DNA of 32,000 nucleotides, taken from positions 2,190,001-2,222,000 of the forward strand of contig JALDRA010000001.1 in assembly GCA_031316235.1 (NCBI GenBank), in the 5' to 3' direction. Source of the stretch: Candidatus Scalindua sp. Lineage in GTDB: Bacteria > Planctomycetota > Brocadiia > Brocadiales > Scalinduaceae. Positions within the stretch are counted from its first letter, which is position 1. Each line of letters opens with the position of its first letter. Shown in pieces: positions 6,796 through 26,429 of the stretch. Under the pieces are notes generated by a model. The model saw nothing but the letters and a program-made list of their open reading frames with translations, did no database searches and was not told where the DNA came from. Made by a program: the position numbers and the translations under genes.

Positions 6796-7770
6796 TTAGT
6801 GCGGGGTTCCTGTCCGCCCCTTTTTCCCAACAAGCTTCAGCAACTGGTGTTTCATGATACTCTTGATAACCCTTATGATGTCGAAGCCTATCGGTTTGAG
6901 TTCCGGAAGGATAAAATCTTCCACCCTCGCAGAAGAGAGTTCACTGCCGACAATTTCTATCCTGGAAAGATCCTGCTCCCCTGTTTGTAACCGTTCAGCT
7001 GCTCTGAGGACCGGAACGTTCTGTGGATTGACGAAAAGCAGCTCTGCAACAACACGGTCAAGGGCAATGCAGTCGATGGCCCCGACAAGGAGCGAGACAT
7101 CTTTCGGCAATCCACCTGTCGGCCCTTTTTCCTCCATGGCCATGATACTATCAAGGATGGTAAATGATGGTTTAACCATCTGATAATTGGCAATGAGCAT
7201 ATCTGCATACCACTCCAGATCATTCTTTGCCATAAAGTGTCTCCAGACTTTCCGCTTTCCGCTTACGCAACCGTACATATTCTTTATCCCTGCGGTATAG
7301 AGCAGTTGAACATGAGCCTTTAATTTCGGAAGATTGATTATGGCATCAACATCAAGCGCTTTTCCTGAAACCGTTAAGGTAAATTTTTTCCCTCCACATT
7401 CAACAGACACCTTACGTGGTTTGTCCAGCTCGATTATTTTGATACCTAAATTACGGGCAACCTTATCCAGCCCCACATAGCTCGTTATCTTCTTCATGGA
7501 TCCGAATGCCGGGCTGTCACCTATTACCGGCACGGCACCTGCGTCAAGGACCTTTCGTGCAACCGTTTCTATCACTACAGGATGTGTTATCACACATTTT
7601 CTCGGGCTGCTCGCTTTCAGGAAATTTGGTTTGAGAAGAACCTTGTCTCCTTGTTTGACAATACTTTCAATCCCGCCAAAATAAGAAAAGGTCTTATCTA
7701 TTGCATCAGAAACCTCTTTTTGAGAATAACTGCTGCATCGTACCAGTGAAATTTTATTCAAATTTGTCAT
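6796..7770 (-). CDS. DUF362 domain protein (cytoplasmic paralogue)
   Basis: 324 aa. GDKVLLKPNFL and LPKLKAHVQLLYTAGIKNMYGCV match the DUF362 pattern. It is paralogous to 20217-21218 (GDRVIIKPNIA / AKQHGTSRLSMALKNTLGMV). No signal peptide. Confidence 0.75.
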   Translation of the reverse strand: MTNLNKISLVRCSSYSQKEVSDAIDKTFSYFGGIESIVKQGDKVLLKPNFLKASSPRKCVITHPVVIETVARKVLDAGAVPVIGDSPAFGSMKKITSYVGLDKVARNLGIKIIELDKPRKVSVECGGKKFTLTVSGKALDVDAIINLPKLKAHVQLLYTAGIKNMYGCVSGKRKVWRHFMAKNDLEWYADMLIANYQMVKPSFTILDSIMAMEEKGPTGGLPKDVSLLVGAIDCIALDRVVAELLFVNPQNVPVLRAAERLQTGEQDLSRIEIVGSELSSARVEDFILPELKPIGFDIIRVIKSIMKHQLLKLVGKKGRTGTPH

Positions 7771-11157: not shown

Positions 11158-12711
11158 TTGAATGAGTCTGACGCTCGTAAGGTCCTATTTGTAAGGGCCA
11201 TAGAAAAGGGAGATCCTGCCGGATTGGTTTTGCCCAAGGCAGATAGATTAGTAGCAACTCGAAAAGCACGCCGCCCTGAAATAGTTGTTTGTGAAGAAAA
11301 AACAGAATCCCGCCCCCTCAACCAGGAAGAGGAATCATTCCTTGTCAGACGTGCTGAGTCACTCATACAAACCTTGAATCAGTGCTGTCCCGGTGCTCGA
11401 ATAGATCCCGGAGAATTGCAATGGAAAGGCTGGCTCACGGTTTTGTGCTTTATTCTGGCCTTTTTTTTGGGTTTCATTGCCAATGAGTTTGAATCCGGTA
11501 AACGATTAAATCTGTTGGCTTTTCCCGTCATGGGCATGCTCATATGGAACCTTGCTGTATACGGGTATATCGGATTTTCGCACATCCAGAGTGCTTTTAA
11601 GAAGGATTCCTGTGCGACATTCAACGGACCTATTATTCATGTTTTGTCAAGTGTGGCAACCCGGCATCTGAATAAAAACAGAGCTTCTGCTGATCGGTCA
11701 TCGATTCTCAGCAGGTGTTTCCAGAATTTTATCATTGAGTGGTCCCGACTCGCTTCCTCGATCTATAAAAGCCATGCTGCAAGGGTAATGCACGTGTGTG
11801 CCTTACTTTTTGCTGTTGGGATTATTGGAGGTATGTATATAAGGGGCGTAACGACGGAATATTATGCTGGTTGGGAGAGTACCTTTTTGGAGCCTGAAAC
11901 CGTACAAAAGCTCATGAATGTTGTTTTTATGCCAGCCGCTCTCCTTACCGGTCAGCAACTTCCAACAGTCGAACGAATAAAGGCTATCCAGTGGAGAGAC
12001 CGACGAGTCGGGGAAAACGCTGCAGAGTGGATACATCTCTTTTCAAAGACACTGTTTCTTTTCATTGTCATCCCGAGGGGATTTCTTTTTTTTATGGCAT
12101 TGAAACGGGAAAGGAAATTTCGAGCGCATTTTCCTATTCCGTCCGCGGCTGATTCCTATTTTAGAGAGCTGTTAACAGCCAGACCGGGACAGAGGGAACA
12201 CGTTCTCGTAATACCATACACAATTGAGCTTGCAGAGAAACAAATGGAGGTATTGTGCTCACTGTTTGATCAAAGCTTCGGTTGGAAGACGCAAGTCGAA
12301 TTCCACGATACCATACCCTATGGAGGTGAGAATAAATTGTTCAAAGAGCTTGTAGCTCGTACGATGACTTCTGCTGAATATTTGATAATTCTTTTCAATC
12401 TGTCATCTACTCCTGAATATGAGATTCATGGTGCTTTCATACATAATCTTAAGGAAGCCATTGCTATCGGCAATTCAACGAAAAAAATTCTCGTTACGAT
12501 TGATGAATCTCATTTTGTGTCCCGGTTCTCTCGTCTGTTGAATGGAGAAGAGAGGCTCGCATCACGCAAGAAATTATGGGAAAAAACAATTGCAGGAGAT
12601 ATCCTCAGACCCATCTTTGTCAATCTGCACAATCCTGATGTGGAAGAGTGGCAATTAAATATCGGTAAAGTTCTCACGTCTTTAAATGATCATGTCTGGA
12701 AATATGAATAA
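11158..12711 (+). CDS. DUF2868-like polytopic membrane protein with C-terminal alpha/beta domain
   Basis: 517 aa with a TTG start 7 nt after GGAGA. It has a soluble N-terminus of about 90 aa. Hydrophobic segments are WLTVLCFILAFFLGFIANEF, LLAFPVMGMLIWNLAVYGYIGF, VMHVCALLFAVGIIGGMYI and LFSKTLFLFIVIPRGFLFFMAL. A soluble tail of about 190 aa with an alternating beta/alpha pattern follows. Family assignment is from memory of the family and its usual pairing with DUF3482 GTPases, and needs HMM confirmation. Confidence 0.6.
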   Translation: MNESDARKVLFVRAIEKGDPAGLVLPKADRLVATRKARRPEIVVCEEKTESRPLNQEEESFLVRRAESLIQTLNQCCPGARIDPGELQWKGWLTVLCFILAFFLGFIANEFESGKRLNLLAFPVMGMLIWNLAVYGYIGFSHIQSAFKKDSCATFNGPIIHVLSSVATRHLNKNRASADRSSILSRCFQNFIIEWSRLASSIYKSHAARVMHVCALLFAVGIIGGMYIRGVTTEYYAGWESTFLEPETVQKLMNVVFMPAALLTGQQLPTVERIKAIQWRDRRVGENAAEWIHLFSKTLFLFIVIPRGFLFFMALKRERKFRAHFPIPSAADSYFRELLTARPGQREHVLVIPYTIELAEKQMEVLCSLFDQSFGWKTQVEFHDTIPYGGENKLFKELVARTMTSAEYLIILFNLSSTPEYEIHGAFIHNLKEAIAIGNSTKKILVTIDESHFVSRFSRLLNGEERLASRKKLWEKTIAGDILRPIFVNLHNPDVEEWQLNIGKVLTSLNDHVWKYE

Positions 12712-14182
12712 ATTGAATGAATCCATTACGTTGAGCCTTATCTCACATACCAATGTTGGAAAAACAACTCTCGCACGCACATTGCTGAGAAAGGAAATTG
12801 GGGTAGTACGGGACGGTGCTCATGTGACGGATTTGAATGAATTATACATTATGCTGGAGACTTCCGGAGGTCATGTTCTACGCCTTTGGGATACCCCGGG
12901 ATTTGGTGATTCGGCGAAGCTGCTTAATCATTTAAAGAGTATACCCAGGCCAACAGGGTGGTTTCAAGATGAAGTATGGGATCGTTTTCATGATCGCTCA
13001 CAGTGGTGCAATCAACAAGCTATCCGTAATGTACGGGAGGAAGCGGATGTCATACTCTACCTTGTCAATGCTGCCGAAGATCCTGCACAGGCGGGGTATG
13101 TAGATTGTGAAATGCAGATACTCGATTGGCTGAGTAAACCGGTTATTGTCCTCTTGAACCAGATGGGTCCGCCACGAGAAGCCGAGATTGAAGCTGGAGA
13201 AGAAAAGTCCTGGAAAGTGCACCTTCAGCGGTTTGAAGTTGTGAAGTATGTAATGGGTCTGGATGCCTTTGCACGGTGCTGGGTCCAGGAAGATCTGCTC
13301 ATGAGAACAATCGAAGGGGTGCTTCCATTTGCAAAGCGGAAACCATTTGCTGCTATCAGTAAAGAGTGGAGAAATAACAATCATTCGATTTTTGAGAGAG
13401 CAATGGATTCTCTTGCGAGGCAGATCTCCGCTGCATGTTGCGACCGGGAGACAGTTTCCAAAACATCGATGTTTCGGCTGGTTCAATTTAAATTGCCGGT
13501 TCCGGGAACATTTTCAGAAAATAGAAAAGAGAAAGAAGTCGCCATGAAAAGGTTGGCTGAAAGGCTGCAGAACAACGGTAGACAGTCACTCGCAGAATTG
13601 ATCCACCTGCATCAGCTCGAAGGGCGTGCCGTGACAGAGATCATCAAACGGATGTCCAGTGATTTTTCATCGAACAAACCCATAAACGAGGGTATCTCGG
13701 CGATAATTGGAGGTTTTGTAACCGGGGCAATAGGCGGAGTGAGTGCCGATTTTCTATCAGGAGGTTTGACGTTCGGCGGTGGCGCTGTTGTAGGTGGAGT
13801 GTTGGGGGCAGTCGGCGCTGGGGGACTGGTCAAAGGGTTTAATTTTATTCGTGGAGATACCAGTGCATTTATCCGCTGGTCATTACCATTGTTTCAGGAG
13901 TTGTTTCGAATTTCCCTGCTACGCTACCTTGCAGTTGCTCATTTTGGAAGAGGAAGAGGAGAGTATACAGAAAGTGAATATCCCGAATTCTGGAAAACTG
14001 CAGTCCGTCAAATTGTTGCAGAGTATCACAATGAAATCAAGGCCCTTTGGGATGCAGGTAAACGGGAGCTGAATTCTTCAAAACTAGATTTACGTACAAA
14101 AGAGATCGTCTCGAAAATTATAAGGGAGTTATTGGAAGGGTTTTATGCTGAAGCACATACTTCTGGATCAGTATTCCAGTAG
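12686..14182 (+). CDS. P-loop GTPase (MMR_HSR1-like) fused to a DUF3482-like region with glycine-rich membrane segment
   Basis: G1 is SHTNVGKTT and G3 is WDTPGFGDS. The G4 position reads LLNQMG. A helical middle part is followed by GISAIIGGFVTGAIGGVSADFLSGGLTFGGGAVVGGVLGAVGAGGLVKGF (13691-13840) and then LAVAHFGRGRGEY. Candidate starts ATG 12686, 12692 and 12704 all overlap the end of the upstream gene; 12704 gives ATGAATAA coupling. Confidence 0.75.
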   Translation: MIMSGNMNKLNESITLSLISHTNVGKTTLARTLLRKEIGVVRDGAHVTDLNELYIMLETSGGHVLRLWDTPGFGDSAKLLNHLKSIPRPTGWFQDEVWDRFHDRSQWCNQQAIRNVREEADVILYLVNAAEDPAQAGYVDCEMQILDWLSKPVIVLLNQMGPPREAEIEAGEEKSWKVHLQRFEVVKYVMGLDAFARCWVQEDLLMRTIEGVLPFAKRKPFAAISKEWRNNNHSIFERAMDSLARQISAACCDRETVSKTSMFRLVQFKLPVPGTFSENRKEKEVAMKRLAERLQNNGRQSLAELIHLHQLEGRAVTEIIKRMSSDFSSNKPINEGISAIIGGFVTGAIGGVSADFLSGGLTFGGGAVVGGVLGAVGAGGLVKGFNFIRGDTSAFIRWSLPLFQELFRISLLRYLAVAHFGRGRGEYTESEYPEFWKTAVRQIVAEYHNEIKALWDAGKRELNSSKLDLRTKEIVSKIIRELLEGFYAEAHTSGSVFQ

Positions 14183-15233: not shown

Positions 15234-16577
15234 TTACTCTTTTGTCAACTTCTTTTCCTCTTCCTGTATCCTCTTCTGCATCTCTCCTGCCCATTTTGTA
15301 ATACTTTTTGCATCTACAGGTTCTCCGCCCGTAAGAATCTTCAGCTGTCTTCCCTCAAGAACTTCTTGTTCTTCTCCTCCTCTTACAACGGTTGCACTGC
15401 CCCTCGTTGGTGTTATCTGAATCATAAATTCTGATACCTTGATGTCAATTTCTGCTTCATGTACACGTACACTGCTGGTATGGGCTGTTACGATAAATGG
15501 CTCTTTATCCCCAGAAATCTTTGCTAATATCTGCCCCTGTACAATGTCAAGCTTTCTTTTTTCTACCAGTTTGATATTAGTATCCACGTCCATAATGATA
15601 TACGTACCGTCCTTTAGAACAAAAGAGGCTTTACTTCCTTTTCCCGTCTGCAGGATTGCCCCTTTCTGGATTTTCGATTTATCGTTTACTACCCGCCATT
15701 TATTGTCAACTGAAGAACGCGTTTTTACGACACCTGTTGATTCTACAAGCTTTGCTTTGGCGGGCAGCGTAAAAAATAAAAAAATGATATAGACACACAG
15801 GGCACCAAAACCCAACAAAAGGCAGAATCTGCCAACAGCCTTTTTTGTCGGCCTTATCAGTATTATGCCTATTTCGTACAGGGCGATCATCGGCAATGCC
15901 GTCATAACCTGCGTAAAAGGGTCCGGCGGTGTAATGACAGCTGCGATTATAAAAATGATAAGGATAGCGTACTTTCTCCATTTCGCAAAATCTTCGCCCT
16001 TCAGTACTCCAATCTTTGCAATAAGCAACATGACAAGGGGAAGTTGAAATACGATGCCAAGGGCGATTGTCAACAGGAAGACAAGAGAAATATACTGACT
16101 CATCGTAATCACAGGTTCTATACTTGAGCCCAGAATTTTGATCAAAAACTGCAGTCCATATGGAATCAGTAAAAAGTATCCGAACAAGATACCTGATACG
16201 AATGCAATAAGGGAAAAAGGAACAAAAATTATTACGTACCTGCGTTCTTTCCTGTACAAACCGGCTTCGACAAATTTCCAGATTTGATATACAATAACAG
16301 GGTAAGCCATAAACAGCGATGCTATGAGGCAGAGCTTTATATAAGCATAAAAACCCTCCTGATAACTTAAAACCTGAAGTGATTGAGGCAGACCCAGGTT
16401 CTCCATCGCAAAATTGTGTGGTTTTTTGACGATATACAGGATCTTTGATTTAAATAACCAGCTGATAAAGAAGAAACCGGCAACAGCAATAATCGATTTT
16501 ATAATCCTTGATCGCAGCTCCTCAAGGTGCTCACTTATCGGTAACCTTTTCTCCTGGGTCTCTTGATTTTCTACCAT
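15234..16577 (-). CDS. tatC: TatC (twin-arginine translocase subunit) fused to an extra TM helix and a C-terminal FecR-like domain
   Basis: The N-terminal about 245 aa has the ISEHLEELRSRIIKS start and six hydrophobic segments typical of TatC. A seventh TM follows (FCLLLGFGALCVYIIFLFFTL). Next comes KIQKGAILQTGKGSKASFVLKDGTYIIMDVDTNIKLVEKRKLDIVQGQILAKISGDKEPFIVTAHTSSVRVHEAEIDIKV, which follows the FecR-domain pattern (G-x-l-x-T-g..s-x-a-x-l-x-l-x-dG-s...f-x-V-x-T). It is one uninterrupted 447-aa ORF. Confidence 0.8.
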   Translation of the reverse strand: MVENQETQEKRLPISEHLEELRSRIIKSIIAVAGFFFISWLFKSKILYIVKKPHNFAMENLGLPQSLQVLSYQEGFYAYIKLCLIASLFMAYPVIVYQIWKFVEAGLYRKERRYVIIFVPFSLIAFVSGILFGYFLLIPYGLQFLIKILGSSIEPVITMSQYISLVFLLTIALGIVFQLPLVMLLIAKIGVLKGEDFAKWRKYAILIIFIIAAVITPPDPFTQVMTALPMIALYEIGIILIRPTKKAVGRFCLLLGFGALCVYIIFLFFTLPAKAKLVESTGVVKTRSSVDNKWRVVNDKSKIQKGAILQTGKGSKASFVLKDGTYIIMDVDTNIKLVEKRKLDIVQGQILAKISGDKEPFIVTAHTSSVRVHEAEIDIKVSEFMIQITPTRGSATVVRGGEEQEVLEGRQLKILTGGEPVDAKSITKWAGEMQKRIQEEEKKLTKE

Positions 16578-16883
16578 CTCTGTTTTTCCATCTGTTTGTT
16601 TGAAGACGTACCTGTTTTTAATAGCGTGATATGATACTAGGACGGGTGTAAAATTACAAGATTCAATCTTTCTCCGATTTTTTTCCTGAAACAGGGCTGC
16701 CTGTTCTTCCTCCCGGGGGCAACCGGTCTGTGCATGGAGATGTCCGGGCTTTCCAGTGGGTTTCTCATGCGGTTTTTTCCAGGCTCCAGGGTATCAGAAA
16801 AGCCTTGAAAGGGTTTACTCTTTCTGATATTATCGATTCTCAAGTACGGTTTCGGTCCTTTTTTACTCAGGAAAGGTAATACG

Positions 16884-17357
16884 ATGGTTAGATCATTTGC
16901 AGGCAGCCTTATTGGTACTGGTAAGACTTTTGGTATTATTGTTAGCAGATTTAACAGTTTCATTACAAAACAGTTGCTGGAGGGGGCGCAGGACTGTCTG
17001 ATAAGACACGGAACCGATGAAAAGGATATTGATGTTTTCTGGGTTCCAGGGTCTTATGAAATACCGATTACGGCCATGAAGCTGACCAAAAATGGCAAAT
17101 ACGATGGCGTCATCTGTCTGGGTGCAGTAATACGCGGAGAAACACCACATTTTGATTATGTTTCCAGTGAATCTGCCAAGGGAATTACCGAGGTTGGTCT
17201 TGCAACCGGTGTTCCCACAACATATGGAATCATCACAACCGATACCCTGGAACAAGCCATAGATAGAGCAGGTACCAGAAGCGGCAATAAGGGTGCAGAA
17301 GCCGCATTGACAACGCTGGAAATGGTAAATTTATTTGAAACGATAAAGAATGGGTAA
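16884..17357 (+). CDS. ribH: 6,7-dimethyl-8-ribityllumazine synthase
   Basis: 157 aa. Contains FGIIVSRFNSFITKQLLEGAQDCLIRHG, WVPGSYEIP and GAVIRGETPHFDYV. Confidence 0.92.
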   Translation: MVRSFAGSLIGTGKTFGIIVSRFNSFITKQLLEGAQDCLIRHGTDEKDIDVFWVPGSYEIPITAMKLTKNGKYDGVICLGAVIRGETPHFDYVSSESAKGITEVGLATGVPTTYGIITTDTLEQAIDRAGTRSGNKGAEAALTTLEMVNLFETIKNG

Positions 17358-17401
17358 CATGTACGAATATTTCGGGCATACACATCCCTGGAGATCTGAG
17401 T

Positions 17402-18724
17402 TTGCGAAAAAGAACAGTCTCTCGTGAAATAGCGTTACAGGCGCTTTACCAGCTGGAGATCCGCGGTGATGAAATCATGAGCGAGATAGACTCCTTCTGC
17501 AGGAACCAGAGTAGCGAAGAAGAGATATGGAAATTTGCCTTGATGCTCGTTAAGGGGTGTTTTAAGAACATTGAAGAAATAGACAGGAAGATTGTTTCCG
17601 TGTCAGAAAATTGGAGTATGCACAGGATGCCCGTAGTAGATAAAAACATATTACGCTTAGCATGTTATGAGCTTTTCTTTCTGGAAGATATTCCTCCCAA
17701 GGTGACCATTAACGAAGCAATCGATCTTGCAAAGAAATTCAGCACGGAGAAATCAGGATTATTTGTAAATGGTGTATTGGATAAGGTATATTCGGCCTAT
17801 CTCAGCGAGAATAAAAACGATAGCCAACAGGGTACACCGGATTTGTGTGGACACCGTAATGGAGAGGCAGCCAAACGTATATATACAGGTACCGGTGCAG
17901 ACCTTCATATCCATACAGAGTTCTCTGACGGAACTTTTACCCCGGAACAGGTAGTTGAAGAAGCAGTAAAACAAGGCCTTCGAACTATTGCCGTCACAGA
18001 CCATGATAACATTGATGCGCTGGAGGCAACCCGGGAGATCTGTGATCAAAAAGGGATACAGTTCATACCTGCAGTTGAGCTCTCTTCTTTTTATGATCCG
18101 GTGGATATTCATATCTTGGGCTATTACATAGACATAAAGAGTATCGCGCTGAGAGAAAAATTAGCAGAACTGAGGCATGAAAGGATCGAACGAATAAAGA
18201 AAATCTCGGCAAAACTGCACAAGTTGAAAATTGATATTGACCCACAGGAAGTTTTAGATGTTGCAGGAAAAGGGGTGGCCGGCAGGGTACATGTAGCGGA
18301 TGTTTTAGTTCGAAAAGGGTATTGCAGTACCATGCAGGAATGCTTTAATTCCTACCTGGCAGATTATGGGCCGGCCCACGTGCCTAAAGTCTCATTATCG
18401 CTGGAAGGTGCTATTGAGCTCGTAATATCTGCAGGCGGTGTCCCCGTTTTTTCACACCCGGGTCTTACGAAAAGAGATGATTTGATTCCAAAAATGATAG
18501 GATACGGTTTGCAGGGTATCGAGGCCTTTTACCCTTCTCATCATCCGGATGTTGTAAAGCGATATATCCGGTTGGCTCAGAAACATGATCTTGTAATTAC
18601 GGGTGGTTCTGACTGCCATGGTGATCGAAAGCCTGCTACCACGCTTGGTTGTATTACGATAGAAGATTGTCTCGTTGAAAAGATTGCAGAAAGATGCAAT
18701 AGCATGGTTGGCCTCTTCAGTTAG
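17402..18724 (+). CDS. nusB: NusB antitermination factor fused to a PHP-domain phosphoesterase (TrpH/YciV-like)
   Basis: TTG start at 17402 after GGAG (17390-17393). Residues 1-135 are SREIALQALYQLEIRGD ... VDKNILRLACYELFFLEDIPPKVTINEAIDLAKKFS ... FVNGVLDKV (NusB). After a linker of about 30 aa comes ADLHIHTEFSDGTFTPEQVVEEAVKQGLRTIAVTDHDN ... GGSDCHG (PHP, COG0613-type). It is a single 440-aa ORF, 44 nt after ribH. Confidence 0.85.
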   Translation: MRKRTVSREIALQALYQLEIRGDEIMSEIDSFCRNQSSEEEIWKFALMLVKGCFKNIEEIDRKIVSVSENWSMHRMPVVDKNILRLACYELFFLEDIPPKVTINEAIDLAKKFSTEKSGLFVNGVLDKVYSAYLSENKNDSQQGTPDLCGHRNGEAAKRIYTGTGADLHIHTEFSDGTFTPEQVVEEAVKQGLRTIAVTDHDNIDALEATREICDQKGIQFIPAVELSSFYDPVDIHILGYYIDIKSIALREKLAELRHERIERIKKISAKLHKLKIDIDPQEVLDVAGKGVAGRVHVADVLVRKGYCSTMQECFNSYLADYGPAHVPKVSLSLEGAIELVISAGGVPVFSHPGLTKRDDLIPKMIGYGLQGIEAFYPSHHPDVVKRYIRLAQKHDLVITGGSDCHGDRKPATTLGCITIEDCLVEKIAERCNSMVGLFS

Positions 18725-18964: not shown

Positions 18965-19942
18965 ATGGGTTGGTTTTCAAAAAAAAAATCTGGTCTATCC
19001 AAAGAAAAGAAAACGGAAAATAGATCACTGTCATCTTTCCAGAGACTGAAGAACAGTCTTGAGAAGACACGCAGTAAACTATCTTCAAAGTTTAAGAACA
19101 TTGTTTCATTCAGAAAAAAGATTAACACAGCGGTCCTCGATGAAATAGAAGAGATACTGCTTGAATCTGATGTGGGAGTCGGCCCTACGACGAGGATCGT
19201 TCAGGAAATCAGAGACGCCTGGCAGGCCAAAGAGATTGAAGACACCTCTGATGTGTATGATTTCTTGAAAAATAAATTAAAGGAGGGTCTTAAGGGGTGG
19301 GATATTTCCTTAAATATTTCGTCTGTTTCACCAACAGTGATCATAGTTGCGGGCATCAACGGTGCTGGTAAAACGACCTCAATTGCTAAAATTGCCAATA
19401 TATTTATAAAACAGGGTAAGAAAGTTATGCTGTCAGCCAGCGATACTTTCCGTGCTGCTGCTGCGGAACAGCTTGATATCTGGAGTAAAAGAATCGGCTC
19501 TGATATTGTAAAACATCAGACAGGTGCAGATCCTGCTGCAGTCACGTTTGATGCACTTGATGCATGTTTGAAAAGAAAAGCAGATGTTTTGATCGTAGAT
19601 ACGGCAGGCCGTTTACATACTCATGATAATTTGATGAAAGAGTTGTCAAAGATTAAGCGGGTGATATCCAGCAAAATTGCGAATGCACCGCACGAAGTCC
19701 TCATGGTCCTGGATGCTACCACGGGGCAGAATGCGATATCGCAGGCGAAACTTTTCAAAGATGCGGTTGGTATTACGGGTATCATTTTATCAAAGCTGGA
19801 TGGTACAGCCAAGGGCGGTGTAATCCTGGGTATGCGTGATGAGATAGATATACCGGTAAAATTCATTGGTATTGGTGAAGGTGCAGATGATATCCAGGTA
19901 TTTGATGGAGATCAGTTCGTAGATGCTTTATTTGATGCGTGA
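18965..19942 (+). CDS. ftsY: signal recognition particle receptor FtsY
   Basis: 325 aa. It has a Lys-rich N-terminus, GINGAGKTTSIAKIA (G1), DTAGRLH (G3), SKLDGTAKGG (G4) and a PVKFIGIGEGADDI tail. Confidence 0.92.
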   Translation: MGWFSKKKSGLSKEKKTENRSLSSFQRLKNSLEKTRSKLSSKFKNIVSFRKKINTAVLDEIEEILLESDVGVGPTTRIVQEIRDAWQAKEIEDTSDVYDFLKNKLKEGLKGWDISLNISSVSPTVIIVAGINGAGKTTSIAKIANIFIKQGKKVMLSASDTFRAAAAEQLDIWSKRIGSDIVKHQTGADPAAVTFDALDACLKRKADVLIVDTAGRLHTHDNLMKELSKIKRVISSKIANAPHEVLMVLDATTGQNAISQAKLFKDAVGITGIILSKLDGTAKGGVILGMRDEIDIPVKFIGIGEGADDIQVFDGDQFVDALFDA

Positions 19943-20052: not shown

Positions 20053-20216
20053 AAGCACTATCTGATTACACTATGAGCAAAGAACACATCCTGCTACTCA
20101 TTTCAAACATTGAATCAATGGGGTTCTTCGTTTAGTACGGTGAAATAATTCATCAAACTCATGTTTTGCAAAGCAAAAATAACTATAAGTCAGCGTCCAG
20201 CGGGAGCAGAGGTATT

Positions 20217-21218
20217 ATGAAAAAGAATATTTCGAGAAGGACATTTCTGAAAACCGGCGCTGCCATCGGAGCAGGTCTTTATGGATTGGCATATCTTGGT
20301 TCAATTGAAAGACCAGAACCTTTAAAGAAATTAAAGGAAAATGCATTAAAAAAGAAGCTGGTTGTCGTACACGGTGATTATACCAGATGCAATACCGGCA
20401 AAATAGATGATGAAGGTTCCACCATAAAGGAAATGGTGCGAAGGGGTGTCCGTGCTCTTGGATCCCTTGATAAACTGATTTCTCAAGGAGACAGGGTCAT
20501 CATCAAACCGAATATTGCGTGGGACAGGAGACCTGAATTTGCGGTCAACACAAATCCATTTGTAGTTGCCGCGTTAATTGAGCTGTGTAAAGAGGCTGGT
20601 GCGGGCAGCATAAGGGTCCTCGATCATACCTGCTCTTCGAATCCGAAACCTTCATACCTGAATAGCGGGATTGAAAAAGCATCATTTGAAGCAGGTGCAG
20701 ACGTAAGATTTGTCAATCAGAGTTTATTTAGAAATATAACCATACCGGGCGGTAAGGTCCTCCGCTCATGGTCATTTTATGAAGAGTTGATACACCAGGA
20801 TGACATTGATGTCTTAATCAATGTACCCATTGCAAAACAGCATGGTACTTCCCGTTTATCCATGGCACTGAAAAACACATTGGGGATGGTAGGGGGAAAC
20901 AGGGGTGCTCTGCATAAAGACATACATCCTAAAATAGCCGATCTTAATAGAGTTGTCAAAGTTGATCTTACCGTGCTTGATGCATTCAGGACGTTAAGGC
21001 GGCACGGACCAACCGGCGGAAGATTGGAAGATGTCGATAACTCCTTTGAAACTGCAAGAAGAATCGTCATCAGCACTGATCCTGTTGCAGTGGATTCGTA
21101 TGGTGCCACCCTGTTCGGATTGAGAGGAGAGGACATCGGTTTTATACATGAGTCACATGAAGCAGAATTGGGAGAGATTGACTTCATGGCAAATGGTTTT
21201 GAAGAAATAACGGTTTAG
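20217..21218 (+). CDS. DUF362 domain protein with twin-arginine (Tat) signal peptide
   Basis: ATG at 20217 after GGAGCAGAGG. The N-terminus MKKNISRRTFLKTGAAIGAGLYGLAYLG fits the S-R-R-x-F-L-K Tat motif plus an h-region. DUF362 blocks are GDRVIIKPNIAWDRRPE and AKQHGTSRLSMALKNTLGMVGG. Confidence 0.8.
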   Translation: MKKNISRRTFLKTGAAIGAGLYGLAYLGSIERPEPLKKLKENALKKKLVVVHGDYTRCNTGKIDDEGSTIKEMVRRGVRALGSLDKLISQGDRVIIKPNIAWDRRPEFAVNTNPFVVAALIELCKEAGAGSIRVLDHTCSSNPKPSYLNSGIEKASFEAGADVRFVNQSLFRNITIPGGKVLRSWSFYEELIHQDDIDVLINVPIAKQHGTSRLSMALKNTLGMVGGNRGALHKDIHPKIADLNRVVKVDLTVLDAFRTLRRHGPTGGRLEDVDNSFETARRIVISTDPVAVDSYGATLFGLRGEDIGFIHESHEAELGEIDFMANGFEEITV

Positions 21219-22021: not shown

Positions 22022-22212
22022 TCATTCACCGTTACCTGTCAGCACCCTTGCAGGACCTGCACTATATAACAGTTCATAGTCCGGACTTTGTTTCCTTCCT
22101 GTACCTTTTTGATTGCTTCTTGTCATGCTTTCATGTATCATCAAAATTGTTTTTCAGTTTCATTTGCCGGTAAAAAAAACAATTTTAGACCTTGTATGGA
22201 GTAATACAATCG

Positions 22213-23709
22213 ATGCGAAATATGATAAAGATGCTACACGTAGCAGGCACTTTAGTGCTCTTTCAGTTCTGTTTTTCTGGTTCTTCGGTAAGTGCTGCTT
22301 CCATCTTAGAGGGTCTGAATAGCTTTCAGGAGTCGTTAGCCGGATGGGTTGAAAAGGTTGAAAAACTGGAAGAGAGATCTTCAACTGTTGAAAAAGATCT
22401 TGAAGCGAAAGACAAACAGCTGGCAGAGATAAATAGGAGTCTTTCAAACATAGAGTCTCTTCTCTCGAAGCTTGATTCCAAGCTTACCAGGGTTCAGAAT
22501 ATGCGTTCGGTCGAAGGAGTGAAAGAAACCTTGAAATCATACGAAGATGTATTGGATGTCATTAAGAAAAGATTTTCCGAGATGGTGAAGAGACTGGAAG
22601 ACCAGGAAGTGAAAGTCTCGGTCCTTGAAAGAGTGTATGAAGCTACACAGAATCCAGTCGAAACCATGTTACGTGAAATGGATAAGCAGAAAGTGATAAT
22701 CAGTGCTCTCACTGAAAAGATGGCAACACAGGATAAATCACTTCTGGTGATTATGGATGACTTCAAGAAAGGTACAAGTTCATCGGAAGATCTTGGTAAA
22801 AAGATTGAGAAATTAAACAAAAGGTTAGCCGAGCTGGAATCTGGAGCTGTTATCGTCAAGGGGGGCAGTGTGGCACAGAAAGGCCATGGGACAGAAAAAA
22901 AAGAAGGCTCTCAGGCGACAGGATCTAAGGATCAGGTTGCAGCCGACCATAAAACTGAAAGCCATGATACCGGCGAACATAAACAGGAATCTGATGAAAT
23001 GAAAGGATATATCGATATCGGTATGGGATTTTTTATTAATGATTTGAAATTTGTTTCGTTTGGCTCCTCATGCCGGGTACAGGGAGAAATAGTGAACAAA
23101 TCAAAAAGGTACTACAGTACGGCTGATTTTATCATAAAGGTGTTTGACAAGGTAGGTAAACAACTGGGCGGGCAGGGTTTTTCCTTGATAGGCCTCAGCC
23201 AGAACCATAAAGCGGACTTTGAAGAGATTTTGACCGGTGTAAATGAAGAGGAAATTACCAGCTATACCCTCTACTATGCTAAAATGCCATCACTTTTAGC
23301 CACGGGAGAGGGGGGATTGAAGATGCTGGAGCGAAAGCATGAGGGGGTGACAGCTGAAGAAGCAGCAGGCAGCCTGCATGATGAGAAAAAGGAAGAAGCG
23401 GAAGTGATAGAGGTGGCCAAAGATTTTAAAGAGATTGGCAACGGGTTTTATATAGGAAATGTCACTTTTTCCGGTTTTGGTTCATCTTCATCCGTGGCAG
23501 GTCTGATTCAAAATCATTCAGAGACGGACATCGGCCGCGCAGCCTTTCGTATGCAAATCTTCAGTAAGGAATACGGCCTGATTACGAAGCTGGATTTCGC
23601 AGTCAGGCACCTGAAGGCAGGAGAATCTCAGCACTTCGAAGAAATTATTACCGGCGTACGCCCTACAGATATCGATCGATATGAAGTACTATTCAAGGAT
23701 TCTTATTGA
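22213..23709 (+). CDS. secreted coiled-coil protein with two tandem copies of an unassigned about 90-aa domain
   Basis: The signal peptide is MRNMIKMLHVAGTLVLFQFCFSGSSVSA/AS (the track ORF begins at TTG 22192). About 190 aa are heptad-rich (EKLEERSSTVEKDLEAKDKQLAEINRSLSNIESLLSKLDSKL...), followed by a charged His/Lys/Glu linker. The two repeats are at 23005-23277 and 23422-23706. Confidence 0.7.
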   Translation: MRNMIKMLHVAGTLVLFQFCFSGSSVSAASILEGLNSFQESLAGWVEKVEKLEERSSTVEKDLEAKDKQLAEINRSLSNIESLLSKLDSKLTRVQNMRSVEGVKETLKSYEDVLDVIKKRFSEMVKRLEDQEVKVSVLERVYEATQNPVETMLREMDKQKVIISALTEKMATQDKSLLVIMDDFKKGTSSSEDLGKKIEKLNKRLAELESGAVIVKGGSVAQKGHGTEKKEGSQATGSKDQVAADHKTESHDTGEHKQESDEMKGYIDIGMGFFINDLKFVSFGSSCRVQGEIVNKSKRYYSTADFIIKVFDKVGKQLGGQGFSLIGLSQNHKADFEEILTGVNEEEITSYTLYYAKMPSLLATGEGGLKMLERKHEGVTAEEAAGSLHDEKKEEAEVIEVAKDFKEIGNGFYIGNVTFSGFGSSSSVAGLIQNHSETDIGRAAFRMQIFSKEYGLITKLDFAVRHLKAGESQHFEEIITGVRPTDIDRYEVLFKDSY

Positions 23710-25148
23710 GAGATCTGATACTCCTTCGTAAAACCTTTCCATTCTGAATCCAGGTCCATCTCACCTGGGGTCTGGGATAGAGGATTTTTTGATTTTGGTG
23801 TAAGGGACTCTCTAGGTTCACTTGGGGTTTGAGGGCTTTCGCCCTGCGTTCCATGAGTTTCAGGTAACTTGCCCTGCGTCGCACCTCCTGCCTCTGCATT
23901 ATCCTGAATCTCATTTTCTAGTTTATCTAGATCATAGCGTTTCGGTATTGCATCCTTAATATCCCTTTCGAGCTCTTCAGAAAGTTTCAATATAGTGGAT
24001 ATATCTGATTGCTTTCTATGATCCTCCCCTAGACCCGTTGACCTAAGCACTATATCTGTGTCCAGGTTTCCTCCCAGTTTTCTTACCATCTCAGCTATAT
24101 TCAGTAAATCAACATCTCTGGTTGAGACAATGATATCATTCAGGTTAATGTTGCGTGCAGCTTCTAATGCAACAATCAGGTCTCCGCCTAAACCCGTCAT
24201 GGCCTCTCTCCTCATCCTTTCACCTTCGGCCTTTGCCTTTTCAATGAGCAGTTTCCCCAGAGCTATCCGGATATGTTTATAGTTGTTGCCCTCAGCCACT
24301 TTTTCAACGCGAAACTTGTCTGCTGTAGCTACAATCTCGGTAACCTTGGTTTCAATGTCTGCTTTCAATGTAACCTTTGTTCCCTCTTTGTCAGACTGTA
24401 TTTTTTGTGCAAGTGCCTCTGTGCTGGCATCTATCGTCTGGGTAATACCACGCTCCTCTGCAGCCTTTGTCTTTGCGATATTTAATAACTCTTCCAACCC
24501 CGCAAGTTTAATATTCTTAATCTTTCTCTCCAGCTGTGGGTCAAATCTCATATCAAGAATGAGCCAATCGATAACTTCAACATTACAACGTGATTTAAGC
24601 CGATATGAGAGGAGCTTTTTCGCCTCTGAGCCCCTTTTTCGTTTCTCCTCAGGATCATAAAGATCTTTTTCACTCATCTTACCCAGAATGTTTCTGGCTA
24701 CGTCTTTGGTTTCGTTTTCCACAAACTGCTTATATCTTTCACCCGCTCCTATCTCCTGGCGGATCTTGTGCGCCTGTCCCTTGGCTATCTGATATTTAAC
24801 GATAATGTCAACGGTAACATCGTAGTCATCCGCAGTCCTGATTGGTATCTCCTTAGATTCCATAACTCCCTCTTTGTTACGAGCCTCCCTGGTCAAATTA
24901 AGGGTCTGTACGGTGCCATCAAACAGGTCCCAATACTCTGCTTTCCTGATATATCTGTGCCAACCAGGGCTATAGTCTTTTTGAACAACACCTCGCTTAA
25001 CACCCCATATCACCGTTCTCACACCAACCTGATCAATCCCAACCTTGATTATGCAAAACCTAAAAGTGGTAACAATGACAATTATGGCTACCACGATAAT
25101 TATTGGAACAAAATTTTTGGCCAAAAACCTGGCAAGAAACTTTACCAT
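23703..25148 (-). CDS. SPFH/Band 7 domain membrane protein, paralogue 2 (HflK/C- or flotillin-like)
   Basis: It has an N-terminal TM (FVPIIIVVAIIVIVTTF) and an SPFH core (VGIDQVGVRTVIWG ... IRTADDYDVTVDIIVKYQI). A long coiled-coil region and a Pro/Ser/Thr/Glu-rich tail follow. Its stop overlaps the stop of the convergent 22213-23709 gene by 7 nt. Confidence 0.8.
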   Translation of the reverse strand: MVKFLARFLAKNFVPIIIVVAIIVIVTTFRFCIIKVGIDQVGVRTVIWGVKRGVVQKDYSPGWHRYIRKAEYWDLFDGTVQTLNLTREARNKEGVMESKEIPIRTADDYDVTVDIIVKYQIAKGQAHKIRQEIGAGERYKQFVENETKDVARNILGKMSEKDLYDPEEKRKRGSEAKKLLSYRLKSRCNVEVIDWLILDMRFDPQLERKIKNIKLAGLEELLNIAKTKAAEERGITQTIDASTEALAQKIQSDKEGTKVTLKADIETKVTEIVATADKFRVEKVAEGNNYKHIRIALGKLLIEKAKAEGERMRREAMTGLGGDLIVALEAARNINLNDIIVSTRDVDLLNIAEMVRKLGGNLDTDIVLRSTGLGEDHRKQSDISTILKLSEELERDIKDAIPKRYDLDKLENEIQDNAEAGGATQGKLPETHGTQGESPQTPSEPRESLTPKSKNPLSQTPGEMDLDSEWKGFTKEYQISQ

Positions 25149-25190
25149 GAAAATAATCTCCTGAATTTCTTAAAAACGCAATGTTTTAAT

Positions 25191-26429
25191 TTACTTAGAA
25201 TGTCCGTCTGTCTGCCCCGTGGGGAATCCTTCCAGATGAGTTCCCTCTTCCTTTGCCTGTCCTTCGGAATCCCCGGGATTCGTCAATTGATCAAATAGAG
25301 GCTCAGGTTCTACTTCTGAGATCTGTTCCTTAATAACCTCTTTCATCCTGATTTGCGGTATTGACATGTCACTCTGTAAAACAGGTGTCCCCTTTACCTG
25401 TGCACTAATCAATCTCTTTGCGTACTCCAGCTTTACGAGATTAAGTCCACCCGCACCTTCGAGTGCATTTCGCAGGGCAAGCAGACCTTCAGCCTCAGCC
25501 TTTTTGGTGGCAAGGATTGTTTCAGCCTCTTTCAACAGTTTCTCGTATTCCGCATCACCATCCAGCTCTGCCTTCACAAGGTATTCTACCCCTTGTGACA
25601 TCAATTGGTGCGCCTTTGCCTTCGCCTCAATTTCTAAGCGGTCCAGCTCACCCTGGAAGCGGGATATGGTGACATCCAATTTCTTTGTCTCCTCGGTAAC
25701 GACCCTCTCCTGGTTTCTTTGAGCAGCCCGTTGTCTACGTGTCTGCTCCTCAACCTCTTTATCTGCAAGCCGTCTTTCCTGTATTTTCTCGGCGTATTCC
25801 CGATAGTATCGATAATCGATAAAGTCAATCGTGGTAACCAAGATACCATGTTCGTTTAAAAGCTCATTTAACACCTCTTGCGACTTGGATGACTTATTTT
25901 CCCTTTTTGTAGAATCGGGGAATTCATCCAGCGTTAGTTCACCGAATACATATCTGCAGATAGTCTTTGCATAGTCAAATATCCATTTTTCCTTAAATAA
26001 GTCACCTGTACCCGTATCCTGGACTACTTGGTTCGCTAATTCGGGAATGAGCCTGAAGTGTATGATTAAATCAAGGCTTATGTCACCACCGTCACGGGTC
26101 TTTAAGATTACTGAATTTCCTTCAGGGTAGTCTTTTGATATGTTTGCAGATGTCATGGGGATGAGTTGTTCCGTTTTATCGAGAATATAAAGGTCGTGCA
26201 CATAAGGATAATAAATAACAGCACCTGCGCGATTTATAGTCTTTATTTTTCCGGTGATGTTATTGATGATAACGGCAACCTCGTCTGCACCAACATCCTT
26301 CCATGTCAATCTGCGACCCCCCACGATAAGGACGATTACTATGATCACAATGATGGGGATTAAAAAAACAAAGAGTTTGTTCGTAAAACGGTTTTTCTTT
26401 TTGGCTTTAGGCTTAAAGTTCTTATCCAT
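25191..26429 (-). CDS. SPFH/Band 7 domain membrane protein, paralogue 1 (HflK/C- or flotillin-like)
   Basis: It has a basic N-terminus plus a TM (LFVFLIPIIVIIVIVLIVGG) and an SPFH core (VGADEVAVIINNITGKI ... LKTRDGGDISLDLIIHFRLIP). A coiled coil rich in E/K/A/R and an acidic tail follow. It ends 42 nt upstream of paralogue 2. Confidence 0.8.
   Translation of the reverse strand: MDKNFKPKAKKKNRFTNKLFVFLIPIIVIIVIVLIVGGRRLTWKDVGADEVAVIINNITGKIKTINRAGAVIYYPYVHDLYILDKTEQLIPMTSANISKDYPEGNSVILKTRDGGDISLDLIIHFRLIPELANQVVQDTGTGDLFKEKWIFDYAKTICRYVFGELTLDEFPDSTKRENKSSKSQEVLNELLNEHGILVTTIDFIDYRYYREYAEKIQERRLADKEVEEQTRRQRAAQRNQERVVTEETKKLDVTISRFQGELDRLEIEAKAKAHQLMSQGVEYLVKAELDGDAEYEKLLKEAETILATKKAEAEGLLALRNALEGAGGLNLVKLEYAKRLISAQVKGTPVLQSDMSIPQIRMKEVIKEQISEVEPEPLFDQLTNPGDSEGQAKEEGTHLEGFPTGQTDGHSK

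Follow-up and report, generated by a model that had tools for sequence, protein, structure and literature searches.

NusB fused to a TrpH/YciV-type PHP phosphoesterase in anammox bacteria and its possible role in linking rRNA antitermination to 5′-end processing

While the ribosomal RNA (rRNA) operons are being transcribed, NusB-NusE binds the BoxA element of the nascent pre-rRNA and stays associated with the modified polymerase, and we know of no characterized NusB that carries a catalytic appendage. A 32,000-nucleotide stretch of DNA from Candidatus Scalindua sp. (contig JALDRA010000001.1, positions 2,190,001 to 2,222,000; hereafter the window) raises the question of whether such a protein exists and what it might do, as its nusB gene continues without a stop codon into a PHP phosphoesterase domain. 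We find the fusion to be a fixed feature of anammox bacteria and of some further Brocadiia/Planctomycetota. What is new is a NusB with a covalently tethered enzyme of the RNase AM class, resting on a nusB-PHP gene pair found across the Planctomycetes-Verrucomicrobia-Chlamydiae (PVC) superphylum; no new fold or chemistry is involved. The features of the locus, numbered by their positions in the window, are the following:

16805..16833, plus strand: possible sigma-70-type promoter 5′ of ribH, a weak candidate (10/12 consensus, extended −10 TG)
16884..17357, plus strand: ribH, 6,7-dimethyl-8-ribityllumazine synthase (157-aa open reading frame [ORF]; PF00885 DMRL_synthase found on the identical gene in locus L001)
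17390..17393, plus strand: Shine-Dalgarno-like GGAG, 8 nt 5′ of the TTG start, read from the sequence
17402..18724, plus strand: nusB::PHP fusion ORF, complete, 440 aa, with Pfam, NCBIfam, and PDB sequence matches
17402..17803, plus strand: NusB domain, residues 1-134 (TIGR01951, AlphaFold2 [AF2] model, Foldseek)
17804..17890, plus strand: inter-domain linker, residues ~135-163, with a low predicted local distance difference test (pLDDT) score and low column identity
17891..18706, plus strand: TrpH/YciV-type PHP phosphoesterase domain with a helical insertion lobe, residues 164-435
18965..19942, plus strand: ftsY, the signal recognition particle receptor (PF02881 and PF00448 on the identical gene)

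The fused gene is a single ORF, the stop codon included in its coordinates, that begins with TTG and runs without an internal stop, 44 nt downstream of ribH and 240 nt upstream of ftsY. Its homologues all begin with MR[KN]R and the stop-to-stop frame holds just 21 more codons 5′ of the TTG; therefore, the start is sound. Promoter-like sites in the ribH region are not more numerous than the shuffled expectation. Within the protein, Pfam recognizes NusB at residues 7-130 (132 bits), PHP at residues 167-230, and weakly PHP_C, while the PDB sequence matches are to NusB for residues 1-140 and to 3e0f, 9etk, 7ug9, and 2yb1 for residues 164-431, these four structures being matched over the whole length of the C-terminal 270 residues. 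The original prediction, of a full TrpH/YciV-type PHP domain joined to NusB in a gene that lies downstream of ribH, is borne out by the ORF and these domain matches; it was also right about the motifs HIHTEFSDG and GGSDCHG and about a linker of ~30 aa, which it had placed at 17807-17896.

An assembly or sequencing artefact, or a pseudogene, could join two genes in this way, and related phyla do have the two genes separate, at times one stop codon apart. Such an origin, which the prediction had named as its own possible undoing, has next to no probability and is ruled out by the recurrence of the fusion. The identical 440-aa protein occurs in three independent assemblies (SRR28338161, SRR28338162, and SRR28338169), and all of the 120 best matches among 5.8 billion proteins carry both Pfam domains (365-462 aa, 47-100% identical), with source names that include Ca. 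Scalindua, Brocadia, Kuenenia, Hypogeohydataceae, and Brocadiaceae. The complete Brocadia chromosome CP091279.1 has the same block of tatC-FecR, ribH, nusB::PHP, and ftsY, and both halves are under strong purifying selection. Nor is the fusion confined to one assembly, the second way in which the prediction might have failed: the proposed search for the NusB-PHP architecture finds it widespread in Brocadiia/Planctomycetota, in more than 140 protein clusters at 90% identity, complete genomes included, from Scalindua, Brocadia, Kuenenia, Jettenia, and other Brocadiia/Planctomycetota, in every case between ribH and ftsY.

The more distant relatives were sought with HMMER in an exhaustive search of 1.84 billion 50%-identity representatives. 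Among the best 150 proteins, there were seven full or near-full fusion clusters (P0070, P0121 from Jettenia, P0122, P0123, P0124, P0125/P0273, and P0134/P0274), two fragments, and 141 stand-alone PHP proteins of 251-305 aa that are 36-46% identical to the PHP half of the fusion; more distant fusions may exist below these 150. In the divergent fusions, both domains were confirmed by Pfam, and ribH upstream and ftsY downstream are retained while the outer neighbors vary. The P0124 cluster is named Ca. Brocadiia bacterium. A second fused lineage, with P0274 at its head, comprises ~20 clusters at 90% identity, of which one bears the name Planctomycetota bacterium. Fused forms with both halves intact extend down to ~32-34% overall identity. 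In the databases, these proteins are named NusB, PHP domain-containing protein, or pAp phosphatase, and in the searchable literature we found nothing that links NusB with YciV, TrpH, RNase AM, or a PHP domain, and no description of either the fusion or the gene pair.

At L078 (CAYYAQ010000101.1), a locus of a metagenome-assembled genome labeled "uncultured candidatus Brocadiaceae bacterium," the order is ribH-nusB-ftsY and a PHP gene is absent. Its RibH, NusB, and FtsY scores are like those of non-anammox Planctomycetota, which makes the taxonomic label doubtful; the anammox clade probably has no true exception in L078.

Is the N-terminal half NusB itself or only a NusB-like module? The TIGR01951 nusB equivalog model scores 143.8 bits against a cut-off of 88.35, and PF01029 scores 132 bits against 23.1. 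In the AF2 model, this half is all-helical (helices in residues 2-140, pLDDT ~90), and Foldseek matches it to NusB structures with template modeling (TM) scores of 0.84-0.91, the best being 3r2c, Aquifex aeolicus NusB in the NusE-BoxA complex (TM 0.91, root-mean-square deviation [rmsd] 1.7 Å). In an alignment of 118 fusions, Y16, PPKV.INEAI.LAK, and F121/N123/G124/L126/D127 are invariant or nearly so, and the C-terminal NusB motif FVNG.LDK is retained, here as FVNGVLDK. Other Planctomycetota, in 11 of the 80 loci listed below, have ribH-nusB-ftsY without PHP; therefore, the fused gene sits at the housekeeping nusB locus. By its score above the equivalog cut-off, its fold, and its position, the N-terminal half is assigned to NusB, with NusE and BoxA binding predicted. 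It resembles the NusB of Escherichia coli and A. aeolicus (3r2c, 3d3b, 6tqn) in the equivalog model, the fold, Y16, FVNGVLDK, the position after ribH, and the presence of BoxA in the clade, and is unlike them in its 300-aa C-terminal extension of linker and PHP enzyme.

The nearest architectural precedent is RsmB/Sun, the 16S rRNA 5-methylcytosine 967 (m5C967) methyltransferase, in which a NusB-fold module is likewise joined to an enzyme that acts on rRNA. There, however, the module is a paralogue that has diverged, and NusB is retained as a protein of its own, whereas here the module is the orthologous NusB itself, joined to a PHP hydrolase. The protein of the window could be a second case of the RsmB kind, its NusB fold a mere RNA-binding handle and a separate stand-alone NusB responsible for antitermination. 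Weak matches of RsmB models and the appearance of the Fmu structures 1sqf and 1sqg in Foldseek point in that direction, as does the very fact that the NusB fold is known as the N-terminal module of RsmB. We nevertheless regard this as very unlikely: the RsmB models match the NusB part alone, with 29-59 bits against cut-offs of 269-319 and no methyltransferase domain, whereas the NusB equivalog cut-off is passed; the locus is that of the ordinary nusB in the 11 other Planctomycetota loci; and the upstream gene of unfused relatives is a normal nusB of 138 aa.

The C-terminal half retains what an active PHP phosphoesterase is expected to need. All nine metal ligands (H169, H171, D176, H201, E226, H237, H352, D404, and H406), the loss of which would have spoken against the prediction, are present and invariant in the 118 fusions and in 58 adjacent, unfused homologues; R261, R264, R295, H297, and F315 are likewise invariant in the fusions (alignments of 16, 17, and 118 sequences). 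In the alignment to 2yb1, H201/D202, E226, R264, F315, H352, and H406 correspond to Chromobacterium violaceum H38/D39, E63, R101, F154, H194, and H253, which are residues of the AMP site, the phosphate site, and base stacking (PMC11528712). Alanine at the aligned AMP- and phosphate-site residues abolishes the activity of Pseudomonas aeruginosa RNase AM, while the role of F154 was identified structurally, without mutation (PMC11528712). The insertion lobe thus keeps the 5′-phosphate-binding arginine (R264, R101 in C. violaceum) and the base-stacking phenylalanine (F315, F154 in C. violaceum), and no catalytic or substrate-site residue is lost in the 19 fused, 58 adjacent, and 36 stand-alone sequences compared.

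Foldseek places the PHP half close to 9etk, Vibrio cholerae RNase AM (TM 0.85, rmsd 2.0 Å), 3e0f (TM 0.86), and 2yb1 (TM 0.84). By its ligands, insertion-lobe residues, and fold, this half is assigned to the TrpH/YciV class of PHP phosphoesterases, and its activity is predicted. It shares with RNase AM/YciV/TrpH (7ug9 from E. coli, 9etk from V. cholerae) and with Cv1693 (2yb1), a phosphatase of adenosine 3′,5′-bisphosphate (pAp), the PHP (β/α)7 barrel, the insertion lobe (TM 0.84-0.85), the nine ligands for three metals, and the arginine and phenylalanine just named. It differs from them in its 22-33% identity and in scores far under both equivalog cut-offs, with 153.1 bits against 375 for RNase RNM/AM (NF047791) and 177.9 bits against 400 for the pAp phosphatase (NF041577), so that it is filed under the class only and under neither named enzyme, and its substrate is extrapolated; its branch has no characterized member. 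The E. coli RNase AM gene is unlinked to nusB and lies near the trp operon, whereas here the PHP domain is fused or adjacent to nusB.

The two halves are joined by a linker that appears to serve as a tether rather than a conserved element. The AF2 model, built on a 118-sequence alignment, has a mean pLDDT of 88.5 and a predicted TM score (pTM) of 0.65, with both domains confident and residues 137-162 below a pLDDT of 50; the prediction is of two rigid domains that a flexible tether joins, without a confident inter-domain interface. Across the 118 fusions, the linker is 17-47 aa long (median, 25), hydrophilic, and rich in K/E/G/N/S; its columns have an identity of 0.28, compared with 0.75 in NusB and 0.71 in PHP. 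As judged from these alignments, both domains are intact and under purifying selection, and the linker is unconserved. No in-frame ATG or GTG was found in the linker, so the PHP half is not obviously translated separately, and nothing resembling a Shine-Dalgarno sequence lies within 15 nt upstream of the linker's sole in-frame TTG (codon 148). An internal start giving a separate PHP product was rejected on these grounds.

Where the fusion came from can be approached through the relatives that are not fused. A scan of GTDB (one genome per species) with patterns from the NusB motifs of the fusion alignment gave at least 80 loci, a biased sample and not a census; in the 80 loci listed, ORFs were called and searched with NusB, PHP, RibH, and FtsY profiles, with the following result:

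Fused: 3 of the 80 loci listed, two from Scalindua and one from a Planctomycetota metagenome-assembled genome (MAG) that groups with Brocadia
Separate nusB followed directly by a PHP gene: 58 of the 80 loci listed
nusB without PHP: 19 of the 80 loci listed, including the 11 Planctomycetota loci with ribH-nusB-ftsY

The 58 adjacent pairs come from Omnitrophota (33 loci), Verrucomicrobiota (13), third-party annotation (TPA) MAGs (9), Ca. Auribacter, Ca. Undivivens, and one unclassified source; the TPA MAGs are labeled uncultured Planctomycetia/Planctomycetales and interleave with Omnitrophota in the tree. In 30 of these 58 pairs, taking the nearest start codon, nusB and PHP overlap by 1-17 nt, mostly as ATGA. 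In L018, L019, L023, L026, and L028 (Omnitrophota and Verrucomicrobiota), nusB and PHP share a frame and have just one stop codon and 6-9 nt between them, as in …KSVS*SIVTKFADLHIHT, and one substitution at such a junction would yield a fusion with a linker of natural length; in-frame junctions are no more frequent than the one-third that chance would give. The outer context varies by phylum, being ribH-nusB-PHP in Omnitrophota and nusB-PHP-ftsY in Verrucomicrobiota, with all four genes together in L011, L071, and Brocadiia. With few exceptions, the Planctomycetota and Omnitrophota loci examined have ribH upstream of nusB. The gene after nusB::PHP or PHP is ftsY in Brocadiia, Verrucomicrobiota, L011, and L071; in other Planctomycetota, ftsY comes straight after nusB. 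In L011, the locus of P0278, separate genes stand in the order ribH, nusB (138 aa), PHP (280 aa), ftsY, rpsO, and pnp, and the ATG of PHP overlaps the TGA of nusB (…AGCAATGCATGA, an 8-nt overlap).

On this comparative evidence, the fusion is a lineage-specific derivative of an older, wider, and tightly coupled nusB-then-PHP gene pair of Omnitrophota, Verrucomicrobiota, and their allies. The original prediction had taken the fusion as the novelty; the fusion is real, but it derives from a much wider nusB-PHP pair. In a rough neighbor-joining (NJ) tree of PHP domains, the core anammox fusions form one clade, P0122, P0123, P0124, and P0273 form a second fused group, and P0274 is placed with neither. 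As the deep nodes lack both resolution and support, anything from one to three fusion events is possible. The PHP gene can also be linked to ftsY independently of nusB, as P0126 (L009/L010, 46% identical to the PHP half) is followed directly by ftsY and has no adjacent nusB, overlapping instead a preceding gene for a ParA/MinD-like ATPase where nusB might be expected; a further stand-alone PHP, P0131 (L013), is linked to neither nusB nor ftsY. The idea that the fusion is peculiar to anammox metabolism was ruled out by the PVC-wide gene pair and by the second fused lineage in other Planctomycetota.

As an observation on the unfused proteins, the NusB of the 13 Verrucomicrobiota loci (L020, L021, L023, L026, L037, L044, L048, L051, L053, L058, L062, L064, and L070) aligns to the anammox NusB profile only from position ~36. 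Its N-terminus (helix 1 and the basic N-terminus) is thus divergent or placed differently, and no ribH lies upstream.

If the fused NusB works in antitermination, a BoxA would be expected in the rRNA (rrn) operons of these bacteria. An Rfam scan of the window found no rRNA and no other RNA family, and BoxA was therefore sought on other contigs. Metagenomic contigs with the Amx368 target were collected, and 15 of the 120 listed loci, which also had the Amx820/BS820 and Pla46 targets, were kept; the attribution of these rrn loci to anammox bacteria depends on the three probe sequences being correct. The 18-mer Amx368 target also matched many human-gut and other metagenome contigs, with Amx820/BS820 present in 15 of the 120 listed loci (L095-L214), and Amx368 alone was thus rejected as an anammox-specific marker in the metagenome collection. 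The 15 rrn loci, all from genomes other than that of the window, contain BoxA-like G[CT]TCTTT[AG][AG]... elements at conserved leader and spacer positions, so that the BoxA which the prediction had proposed to look for is present in the clade. The leader copy is GCTCTTTAAAAA or GTTCTTTGAAAA, at −108 to −128 from the 16S start, and the spacer copy is GTTCTTTGAAAA or GTTCTTTGGCAA:

Brocadia/Kuenenia leader: a TTGAC…TATACAAT promoter-like element followed by a CTCTAC…GTAGAG hairpin and, 108-111 nt ahead of the 16S start, by TTGCTCTTTAAAAATTAG
Brocadia/Kuenenia 16S-23S spacer: GTTCTTTGAAAA ~90 nt before the 23S 5′ motif
Scalindua leader: TTGACA…TATACT and, ~13 nt on, TGTTCTTTGAAAATTGACAAC at −127, with variants …TTTGGAAA and TGTTCATTGAAAA
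Scalindua 16S-23S spacer: GTTCTTTGGCAA ~75-80 nt before the 23S 5′ motif

Compared with the BoxA core GCTCTTTAACAA, the anammox elements have 1-3 substitutions, and there are two copies per operon, leader and spacer BoxA being the classical arrangement (PMC10250234). In the Scalindua-type leaders (L123, L192, L183, L209, and L127; about −140 to −115 from the 16S start), BoxA lies ~13 nt after the predicted −10 TATACT and would therefore be at the extreme 5′ end of the primary transcript. These leaders have no BoxB-like hairpin, and those of the Brocadia type have a hairpin before BoxA. In the window itself, no BoxA was found upstream of ribH, and one relaxed match elsewhere is at chance level. 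NusB autoregulation through BoxA is described in Pseudomonas (PMC5725501); a similar autoregulation at ribH was rejected, as no BoxA lies upstream of ribH in the window.

What, then, might the fusion do? We regard the architectural and evolutionary statements above as near certain, and the functional reading as plausible, with a rough probability of 0.45: the NusB-tethered PHP domain would be a 5′-monophosphate-dependent exonuclease or phosphatase delivered to BoxA-marked pre-rRNA. In this proposal, NusB would bind BoxA with NusE on the nascent pre-rRNA and stay on the elongating polymerase, and the tether, which could span up to ~90 Å for 25 residues, would put the PHP active site within reach of leader and spacer RNA, where the domain would act as a 5′-monophosphate-dependent 5′→3′ exonuclease or as a phosphatase. 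Two outcomes may be envisaged: (i) the enzyme would trim the 5′ ends that arise from endonucleolytic (RNase III-type) cleavage beside BoxA or (ii) it would degrade freed leader and spacer fragments that contain BoxA, so that NusB and NusE could be recycled. In the unfused relatives, translational coupling would give the same stoichiometric co-delivery.

Several published findings are of a piece with this proposal. BoxC, which overlaps the RNase III site, is kept close to the RNA exit channel by the anchoring of BoxA (PMC10250234), and the antitermination complex of rRNA transcription (rrnTAC) boosts co-transcriptional and RNase III processing (bioRxiv 10.64898/2026.03.17.712431). In line with what the original prediction had correctly stated, the mature 5′ ends of 16S, 23S, and 5S rRNA in E. 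coli are produced by RNase AM (YciV), a 5′→3′ exonuclease (PMC7261194), and members of the family also hydrolyze pAp and short oligoribonucleotides with a 5′-phosphate (PMC11528712). Circumstantial support for co-transcriptional processing comes from the active site kept under purifying selection, the predicted flexibility of the tether, the PVC-wide nusB-PHP linkage, the BoxA elements in anammox rrn operons, and the housekeeping position of the gene.

A number of observations weigh against the proposal. The 5′-triphosphate of primary transcripts is not the known substrate of such enzymes. Very short oligonucleotides or pAp are the preferred substrates of the family members characterized (PMC11528712). 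With characterized RNase AM/Cv1693, the PHP half shares only ~30% identity; it reaches neither the RNase RNM/AM nor the pAp phosphatase cut-off, and the AF2 model has no confident interface between the domains. The nearest relatives of the PHP half (~45% identity) are stand-alone proteins in Firmicutes, Chloroflexota, Zixibacteria, and others, and of the three stand-alone PHP genes whose context was inspected, two do not adjoin nusB. Moreover, nusB is equally conserved beside ribH and ftsY, with which it has no known functional link, and adjacency is therefore weak evidence.

Alternatively, the two halves could be co-expressed without any mechanistic link. The PHP protein would then be a general nanoRNase/pAp phosphatase clearing pAp and short 5′-phosphorylated oligoribonucleotides, made from a growth-rate-regulated operon shared with nusB, and the loss of a stop codon would have produced a neutral fusion in which a long flexible linker lets the halves work independently. 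The PHP half does come from a broad branch, stand-alone in many phyla and not always near nusB, its best score is that to the pAp phosphatase model NF041577, and the linker is unconserved with no interface predicted; ribH and ftsY are equally conserved neighbors of nusB with no known functional tie, and the fusion is mechanistically trivial to obtain from an ATGA-type overlap or a single in-frame stop. However, both halves have been kept intact down to ~32-34% overall identity, possibly after more than one origin (three fused groups in the NJ tree), the nusB-then-PHP order and its tight coupling are kept in at least three phyla despite changing outer neighbors, and the fusion imposes 1:1 stoichiometry and co-localization with a protein that functions on BoxA RNA. 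Taken together, we consider simple co-expression possible, on the unlikely side.

A further alternative is suggested by SuhB, a phosphatase-family protein like the PHP half; as part of the antitermination complex of E. coli, it is in physical association with Nus factors on the transcripts of rRNA (PMC4807359, PMC6614797). The PHP domain could similarly be a structural or regulatory subunit of a PVC-type antitermination complex, its catalysis secondary or used for sensing, for example, of pAp. The E. coli rrnTAC needs SuhB, a structural hub that touches NusA, NusE, and NusG (PMC6614797, PMC6614801, PMC10250234), and the PHP partner is stoichiometrically linked to NusB. SuhB, however, has an unrelated, inositol monophosphatase fold and is held non-covalently through NusA/NusE/NusG as a structural hub (PMC10250234), whereas the PHP domain strictly keeps every catalytic and substrate-binding residue, in fused and adjacent forms alike, and AF2 predicts no interface; a purely SuhB-like role thus appears improbable.

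The proposal of a tethered, catalytically active PHP domain can be extended from the anammox fusion to the whole superphylum. In this extension, the antitermination complex of the PVC superphylum would carry its own 5′→3′ exoribonuclease, the NusB-linked PHP protein being an integral and so far unrecognized subunit, fused in anammox bacteria and translationally coupled elsewhere, that would trim or clear BoxA-proximal pre-rRNA co-transcriptionally. Such an arrangement would parallel the coupling of a transcribing polymerase with a Rat1/Xrn2-type 5′→3′ exonuclease in eukaryotic rRNA processing. We put it forward tentatively and find it rather doubtful.

Some other genes of the window deserve mention. 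On the minus strand, 15234-16577 encodes a 447-aa TatC (PF00902, residues 16-229) with a C-terminal FecR-like domain (PF04773, residues 309-393), and the same TatC-FecR fusion (448 aa) occurs in Brocadia (L004/L005) at the same place, divergent from ribH. An overlapping pair at 11158-14182 (plus strand) encodes a DUF2868 protein (517 aa) and a GTPase-like protein with MMR_HSR1 and DUF3482 (498 aa). There are two DUF362 proteins, at 6796-7770 (minus strand) and 20166-21218 (plus strand), the latter with a twin-arginine-like N-terminal signal (SRRTFLKTGAAIGAG). Two long adjacent SPFH/Band-7 proteins (481 and 412 aa) are encoded at 23703-26429 (minus strand), and convergent with them lies a 505-aa ORF without a Pfam match at 22192-23709 (plus strand).

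The fusion bears on how rRNA transcription and folding are coordinated with processing by nucleases; to our knowledge, no nuclease is known as a physical part of the rrnTAC. A NusB joined to an enzyme of the RNase AM class, together with a conserved nusB-PHP pair in three phyla, provides evidence from comparative genomics for a physical link of this kind, and as a single polypeptide that can be assayed with BoxA-containing pre-rRNA, it is a directly testable system. In these genomes, "NusB" annotations conceal an enzyme. Should the two halves turn out to be only co-expressed, the locus would still be a clean case of fusion through stop-codon loss in an overlapping gene pair; if the link to antitermination is true, it would suggest a likely role for a large uncharacterized branch of TrpH-like PHP proteins.

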